Positions 17,671 to 18,037 of a stretch of DNA of 64,000 nt are shown here, piece by piece. The position numbers and the translations under genes were made by a program. The stretch comes from Escherichia coli. Its GTDB lineage: Bacteria > Pseudomonadota > Gammaproteobacteria > Enterobacterales > Enterobacteriaceae. Each line of letters starts with the position of its first letter. The first letter of the stretch is position 1. The stretch is from assembly GCF_003018255.1 (NCBI RefSeq), contig NZ_CP027440.1; one strand, written 5' to 3'. The notes under the pieces are model-generated. The model was not told the DNA's origin and did no database searches. It saw nothing but the letters and a program-made list of their open reading frames with translations.

Positions 17671-17916
17671 GACTATCCCTTATATTTCATTGCTGCGATT
17701 ATTTCAATTTCAGTATACTAATGAAATGATGCCTGACTGTTTCTTAGCGCAAAAACTGCCAGATTTGGTAGGACCAAAATTTATCCACAAAGTAGTTTTG
17801 CATAACAGTTAATTGATAATAAGTAAATGCAACACGAATATATTTTCGCACAGCGTATAGCTTATGTTTATAAAAAAATGGCTGATCTTATTTCCAGTAA
17901 AAGTTATATTTAACTT

Positions 17917-18021
17917 ACTGAGAGCACAAAGTTTCCCGTGCCAACAGGGAGTGTTATAACGGTTTATTAGTCTGGAGACGGCAGACTATCCTCTTCCCGG
18001 TCCCCTATGCCGGGTTTTTTT
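17917..18021 (+). ncRNA. gadY: GadY small RNA, cis-antisense to the gadX 3' UTR
   Basis: Sequence ACTGAGAGCACAAAGTTTCCCGTGCCAACAGGGAGTG…CCCGGTCCCCTATGCCGGGTTTTTTT matches my recollection of GadY, with an intrinsic terminator (CCCGG…CCGGG plus T7); it lies opposite the gadX 3' end. Confidence 0.75.
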
Positions 18022-18037
18022 ATGTCTGAGTAAAACT

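Follow-up and report, generated by a model that had tools for sequence, protein, structure and literature searches.

Our analysis covered a window of 64,000 nucleotides from the Escherichia coli contig NZ_CP027440.1, in which the acid fitness island has the canonical order mdtF, gadW (minus strand), gadY (plus strand), gadX (minus strand), gadA (minus strand), ccp. According to the list of open reading frames and the annotation in near-identical genomes and in K-12, gadW (16942–17670, minus strand) encodes an AraC-family acid-resistance regulator of 242 aa, and gadX (18038–18862, minus strand) an AraC-family acid-resistance activator of 274 aa. The two minus-strand ORFs are separated by a gap of 367 nt (17671–18037). 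The small RNA gene gadY, 105 nt long, was found in this gap at 17917–18021 on the plus strand, opposite to both gadW and gadX, and the layout is that of K-12. The first-pass annotation had given the complete gap as gadY; the gap does contain the gene, but this interval is too broad, since the RNA takes up 29% of it.

The identity of the gene was revealed by a scan of the whole 64-kb window with Rfam 15 at gathering thresholds. The GadY model RF00122 matched 17914–18026 on the plus strand with 145.6 bits, against a gathering score of 45, and E = 1e-30, so the covariance-model search that had been proposed as a check was strongly positive. The match is full length and untruncated (model positions 1–114 of 114), and a rescan restricted to 17600–18100 gave E = 8.1e-33. 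Such an E value over the full length of the model means that chance is no explanation for the match. In K-12 MG1655, the curated ncRNA gadY (b4452, formerly IS183) is annotated at 3664864–3664969, between gadW and gadX. The coordinates 17917–18021 were obtained by carrying this annotation over by alignment, and the window copy agrees with it in position and strand. The two copies are alike at 105 of 106 sequence positions, and also in promoter region and terminator. They differ in the terminator tail, which has seven T's in the window and eight in K-12, and in their background, which in the window is non-K-12, with the chu heme-uptake cluster adjoining the acid fitness island. What gadY is, where and on which strand it lies, how it terminates and how well it is conserved were observed directly. 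Taken as a whole, we put the probability at about 0.96 that 17917–18021 is the E. coli gadY gene itself rather than a relative, with its own promoter and its own intrinsic terminator, cis-antisense to the gadX 3′UTR and acting on the gadX-gadW mRNA as in K-12.

The first 25 kb of the window were 99.8% identical to strain 2017.09.02CC. Here the chu heme-uptake cluster directly adjoins yhiD-hdeBA-hdeD-gadE-mdtEF-gadW-gadX-gadA-ccp-treF, which indicates that the strain is chuA-positive and not K-12. This chu/shu cluster (1–8254) contains chuS, chuA, shuT, hutW, hutX, chuY, shuU and an ATPase gene, and the shuA/chuA 5′UTR RNA thermometer (RF02597) was matched just upstream of chuA at 2360–2391 on the minus strand, with 60.1 bits against a gathering score of 58. 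Several other RNA families were also matched in the window. The ES205 sRNA (RF02754, 105 bits) was found at 12063–12134 on the plus strand, just downstream of gadE (11417–11944, plus strand), and opposite to it a near-identical genome carries a PGAP "hypothetical protein" CDS at 11945–12223 on the minus strand, which may be an annotation artefact over an sRNA derived from the gadE 3′UTR. A tRNA (63120–63193, minus strand) is directly followed downstream by an RtT RNA match (62949–63082, minus strand, 100.9 bits). Matches to a naRNA4/REP-type element (62774–62855) and to ES036 (60496–60538) were found on the plus strand.

The 246 nt between gadY and the start of gadW (17671–17916) were assigned by motif search and from the literature as the divergent gadY/gadW promoter and regulatory region. 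The core promoter of gadY was placed at 17878–17910 on the plus strand from sequence geometry and motif search, and the 57 nt upstream of the gadY +1 are identical to those of K-12. A TATATT hexamer at 17905–17910, ending 6 nt before +1, is a candidate gadY −10 element. Our motif search also showed that ATGGCTGA at 17878–17885 fits the AppY motif ATGSCWGM; this motif has been reported to overlap the gadY −35, and AppY to bind the gadY promoter (PMC10057817). Two SdiA-like motifs were identified, AAAAC-N18-CAAAA at 17752–17779 and AAAAT-N18-TAAAA at 17875–17902; two such motifs and promoter activity have been described previously for the gadY-gadW intergenic region (PMC7286202). The gadY promoter was not picked up in a scan for the sigma-70 consensus, in keeping with its weak −35 match. 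Activation of the gadY promoter by AppY, GadX/GadW and SdiA has been reported. It is also said, from the work of Opdyke et al. in 2004, to be RpoS-dependent.

Two other kinds of candidate were considered in this region. A permissive Rfam scan of the 246 nt outside GadY gave matches to other RNA families at chance level, all far under their gathering scores (anti-hemB, 16.1 bits; PYLIS_3, 15.8 bits; Ysr206, 14.8 bits). A plus-strand ORF of 47 aa at 17669–17812 runs across the start codon of gadW, which is read from the other strand. This ORF was rejected as coding and is with near certainty no gene: in K-12 its frame is shifted by a 1-nt indel and runs into stop codons.

At its other end, GadY approaches gadX without reaching the coding sequence. 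The gadX stop codon TAG lies at 18038–18040 on the minus strand, and the 3′ end of GadY is 16 nt away from it; read along the minus strand, all of GadY falls after gadX has ended and before gadW begins. GadY is therefore antisense to the gadX 3′UTR and not to its coding sequence. The first-pass annotation had described the gene as antisense to the end of gadX, which is right as to the opposite strand and the 3′UTR, but the gadX ORF itself is untouched. Over 17917–18021, GadY is perfectly complementary to the minus-strand RNA, outside both CDSs, and on the basis of this antisense geometry the target segment was delimited as 17917–18037 on the minus strand, that is, the gadX 3′UTR at the start of the gadX-gadW intercistronic RNA.

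The intrinsic terminator of gadY, whose presence had also been claimed at the outset, was located at 17996–18021 on the plus strand by a terminator scan, MFE folds and the Rfam consensus structure. The terminator consensus scan identified the hairpin CCCGGTCCCCTATGCCGGG at 17996–18014, with a 6-bp stem containing five G-C pairs and followed by seven T's, as the single terminator-like site in 17500–18200 when both strands were scanned. On the minus strand of this interval, no terminator-like site was found between gadX and gadW, which fits read-through from gadX into gadW and a gadX-gadW co-transcript. Since the same hairpin can form in the minus-strand RNA too, the conserved block could be nothing more than the gadX 3′UTR with a transcript-end hairpin, and the window strain would then make no independent plus-strand RNA. 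We consider this scarcely credible. The T-run follows the hairpin on the plus strand only, for which reason the hairpin was also rejected as a bidirectional or gadX terminator; the covariance model RF00122 matches the plus strand; and positions −57 to +1 do not differ from K-12, where gadY is an annotated and experimentally studied RNA. An own, terminated gadY transcript thus remains the preferred reading. The T-run at 18015–18021 has seven residues, against eight in K-12 and in four other aligned Escherichia sequences, and only 46 of 5400 genomes are exactly identical to the window over 17980–18032, so that the T7 tail is a minority allele. A U-tail shortened by one residue might be taken to impair the function of the window copy. 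We regard such impairment as very unlikely, as a G+C-rich 6-bp stem with seven U's still has the usual form of a terminator, the Rfam score is hardly changed (145.6 bits, against 142.7–150 in other copies), and a single-base difference in a homopolymer may be an assembly error. The T7 tail may accordingly be either a neutral, rare allele or a homopolymer assembly error.

Three RNAs that share their 3′ end, of 105, 90 and 59 nt, have been reported for gadY (PMC3050690). Computed from these published lengths, the 90- and 59-nt forms are predicted to begin at about 17932 and about 17963 in the window. The MFE fold of the 105-nt RNA has three hairpins, the same as those of the Rfam consensus structure. 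In fold energy the full-length RNA did not surpass shuffled sequence (z = −0.82), and the 59-nt 3′ part, with two hairpins including the terminator, alone stood out (z = −2.14). In a covariation test among five Escherichia sequences, not one substitution fell in the GadY columns; such an invariant sequence offers no covariation to measure, and the support for the structure is that of the Rfam model and thermodynamics.

The proposed role of GadY in processing of the gadX-gadW transcript and in acid resistance agrees with the literature (PMC10057817, PMC3050690, PMC3919570) and would probably hold for the window strain as well. GadY has been described to pair with the gadX 3′UTR and stabilise the gadX mRNA (PMC10057817, PMC3050690), the gadX-gadW mRNA being its target (PMC3919570). 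According to PMC3919570, which cites Opdyke et al. 2011, RNase III takes part in cleaving the GadY/gadX-gadW duplex, and cleavage continues without RNase III, suggesting another nuclease. PMC10783499, likewise citing Opdyke et al. 2011, is a further source for antisense-dependent cleavage of gadX-gadW. GadY has also been reported to bind Hfq (PMC11300174, PMC10783499). In the resulting model, GadY would be transcribed from its own promoter just upstream and end at its own intrinsic terminator, and would then pair with the gadX 3′UTR in the intercistronic part of the gadX-gadW transcript. RNase III and one or more further nucleases would cut the duplex, gadX transcripts processed in this way would accumulate and yield more GadX protein, and GadX would activate the genes of glutamate-dependent acid resistance, including the neighbouring gadA. 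For the window strain, expression of GadY, its pairing in vivo, the cleavage and the effect on acid resistance are to be expected from identity with K-12 and from these reports.

Other antisense systems share part of this arrangement. The lambda OOP RNA with the cII-O mRNA and the type I toxin-antitoxin pairs such as hok/sok likewise involve a short opposite-strand RNA that forms a perfect duplex with an mRNA and is an RNase III substrate, and they have been named alongside GadY/gadX-gadW as RNase III duplexes (PMC3919570). However, cleavage represses the target in those systems, whereas gadX mRNA is reported to accumulate in the case of GadY, and the GadY duplex lies in the 3′UTR and intercistronic region rather than in the 5′UTR or at the start codon. 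SraG, an antisense small RNA of E. coli from the rpsO-pnp intergenic region, differs from GadY in its genes, sequence and outcome. The window itself contains a type I toxin-antitoxin module of the ldr/rdl type at 53030–54721, in four tandem copies with a spacing of 483 nt. The Rfam rdlD antitoxin was matched on the plus strand at 53186–53251, 53669–53734, 54152–54217 and 54635–54700 (79.7–90.4 bits), and opposite to each match there is a minus-strand ORF ending in an Ldr-like peptide, MTLAELGMAFWHDLAAP(I/V)IAGILAS(M/L)IVNWLNKRK. As we take K-12 to have a single ldrD/rdlD at the corresponding locus, the four copies look like a strain-specific expansion.

Conservation of gadY was examined within E. 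coli and across GTDB species. Of 5426 complete E. coli genomes, 5412 carried the 105 nt of GadY with an identity of 99% or more, and the whole gadW-gadX intergenic region showed only 95–99% identity in most genomes. We then used an exact 20-mer from the first GadY hairpin as a query against one genome per GTDB species (298 Gb). Three true GadY loci were found, all in Escherichia (two genomes labelled E. coli and Escherichia sp. MOD1-EC7003) and each with 142.7–150 bits against the GadY model; an exact search of this kind misses diverged copies, and the result says nothing on absence outside Escherichia. An exact occurrence of the 20-mer at 2961–2980 of locus L006, from the Bacteroidales MAG JAFGQZ010000026.1, had no match to the GadY model and was set aside as chance, which shows that a 20-mer is not entirely specific when 298 Gb are searched.

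In a five-way Escherichia alignment (n = 5, with three of the sequences picked by the exact 20-mer inside GadY), the GadY columns contained 0 substitutions and two homopolymer indels, while 11 substitutions were counted in the 57 columns upstream and 7 in the 16 that separate GadY from the gadX stop. In a cis-antisense pair, complementarity survives any mutation, and the invariance of GadY therefore needs a constraint beyond pairing with gadX. Such a constraint might mean that GadY acts mainly in trans and is conserved for the partners concerned, either by titrating CsrA, and so raising pgaABCD and biofilm, or by pairing with the sdiA mRNA. SdiA has been reported as a GadY target (PMC11300174), and PMC10057817 states that GadY is required for AppY-driven biofilm formation and cites CsrA titration; 105 fully invariant nucleotides between variable flanks also call for something other than gadX mRNA pairing. 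However, these trans roles supplement the cis role and do not replace it, and it is the effect in cis, on gadX mRNA, that several papers repeatedly describe. Moreover, the structure of the RNA, its recognition by Hfq or RNases, or a role of the gadX 3′UTR strand could also account for the invariance, which was seen in a comparison of five sequences of which three had been chosen through a 20-mer within GadY. A mainly trans-acting GadY is thus unlikely in our view, though it deserves consideration, and we retain the reading of gadY as a cis-antisense gene that acts on the gadX-gadW mRNA. For the extra constraint to which the invariance points, some candidates have been described before, among them Hfq, CsrA and trans targets. 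It is a more speculative and rather improbable idea that the invariance, seen in E. coli lineages as well as in a cryptic Escherichia clade, reflects protein partners, trans targets that have yet to be described, or a role of the gadX 3′UTR strand itself, with the T7 tail possibly tuning GadY levels.

The locus is already known, and the understanding of GadY is unchanged by this analysis; the significance is an annotation point only. No feature lies under the GadY match in the PGAP RefSeq records examined, in contrast to the curated K-12 MG1655 record, which does annotate gadY. Whoever reads the locus from ORFs or from PGAP annotation therefore overlooks the gene; that it escapes ORF-based annotation had been pointed out in the first-pass annotation. 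What is overlooked is a regulator already characterised for its part in glutamate-dependent acid resistance, a system on which E. coli depends to survive passage through the stomach. The regulator has additionally been linked to biofilm formation. Judged from its sequence, it is present and intact in this chuA-positive strain.
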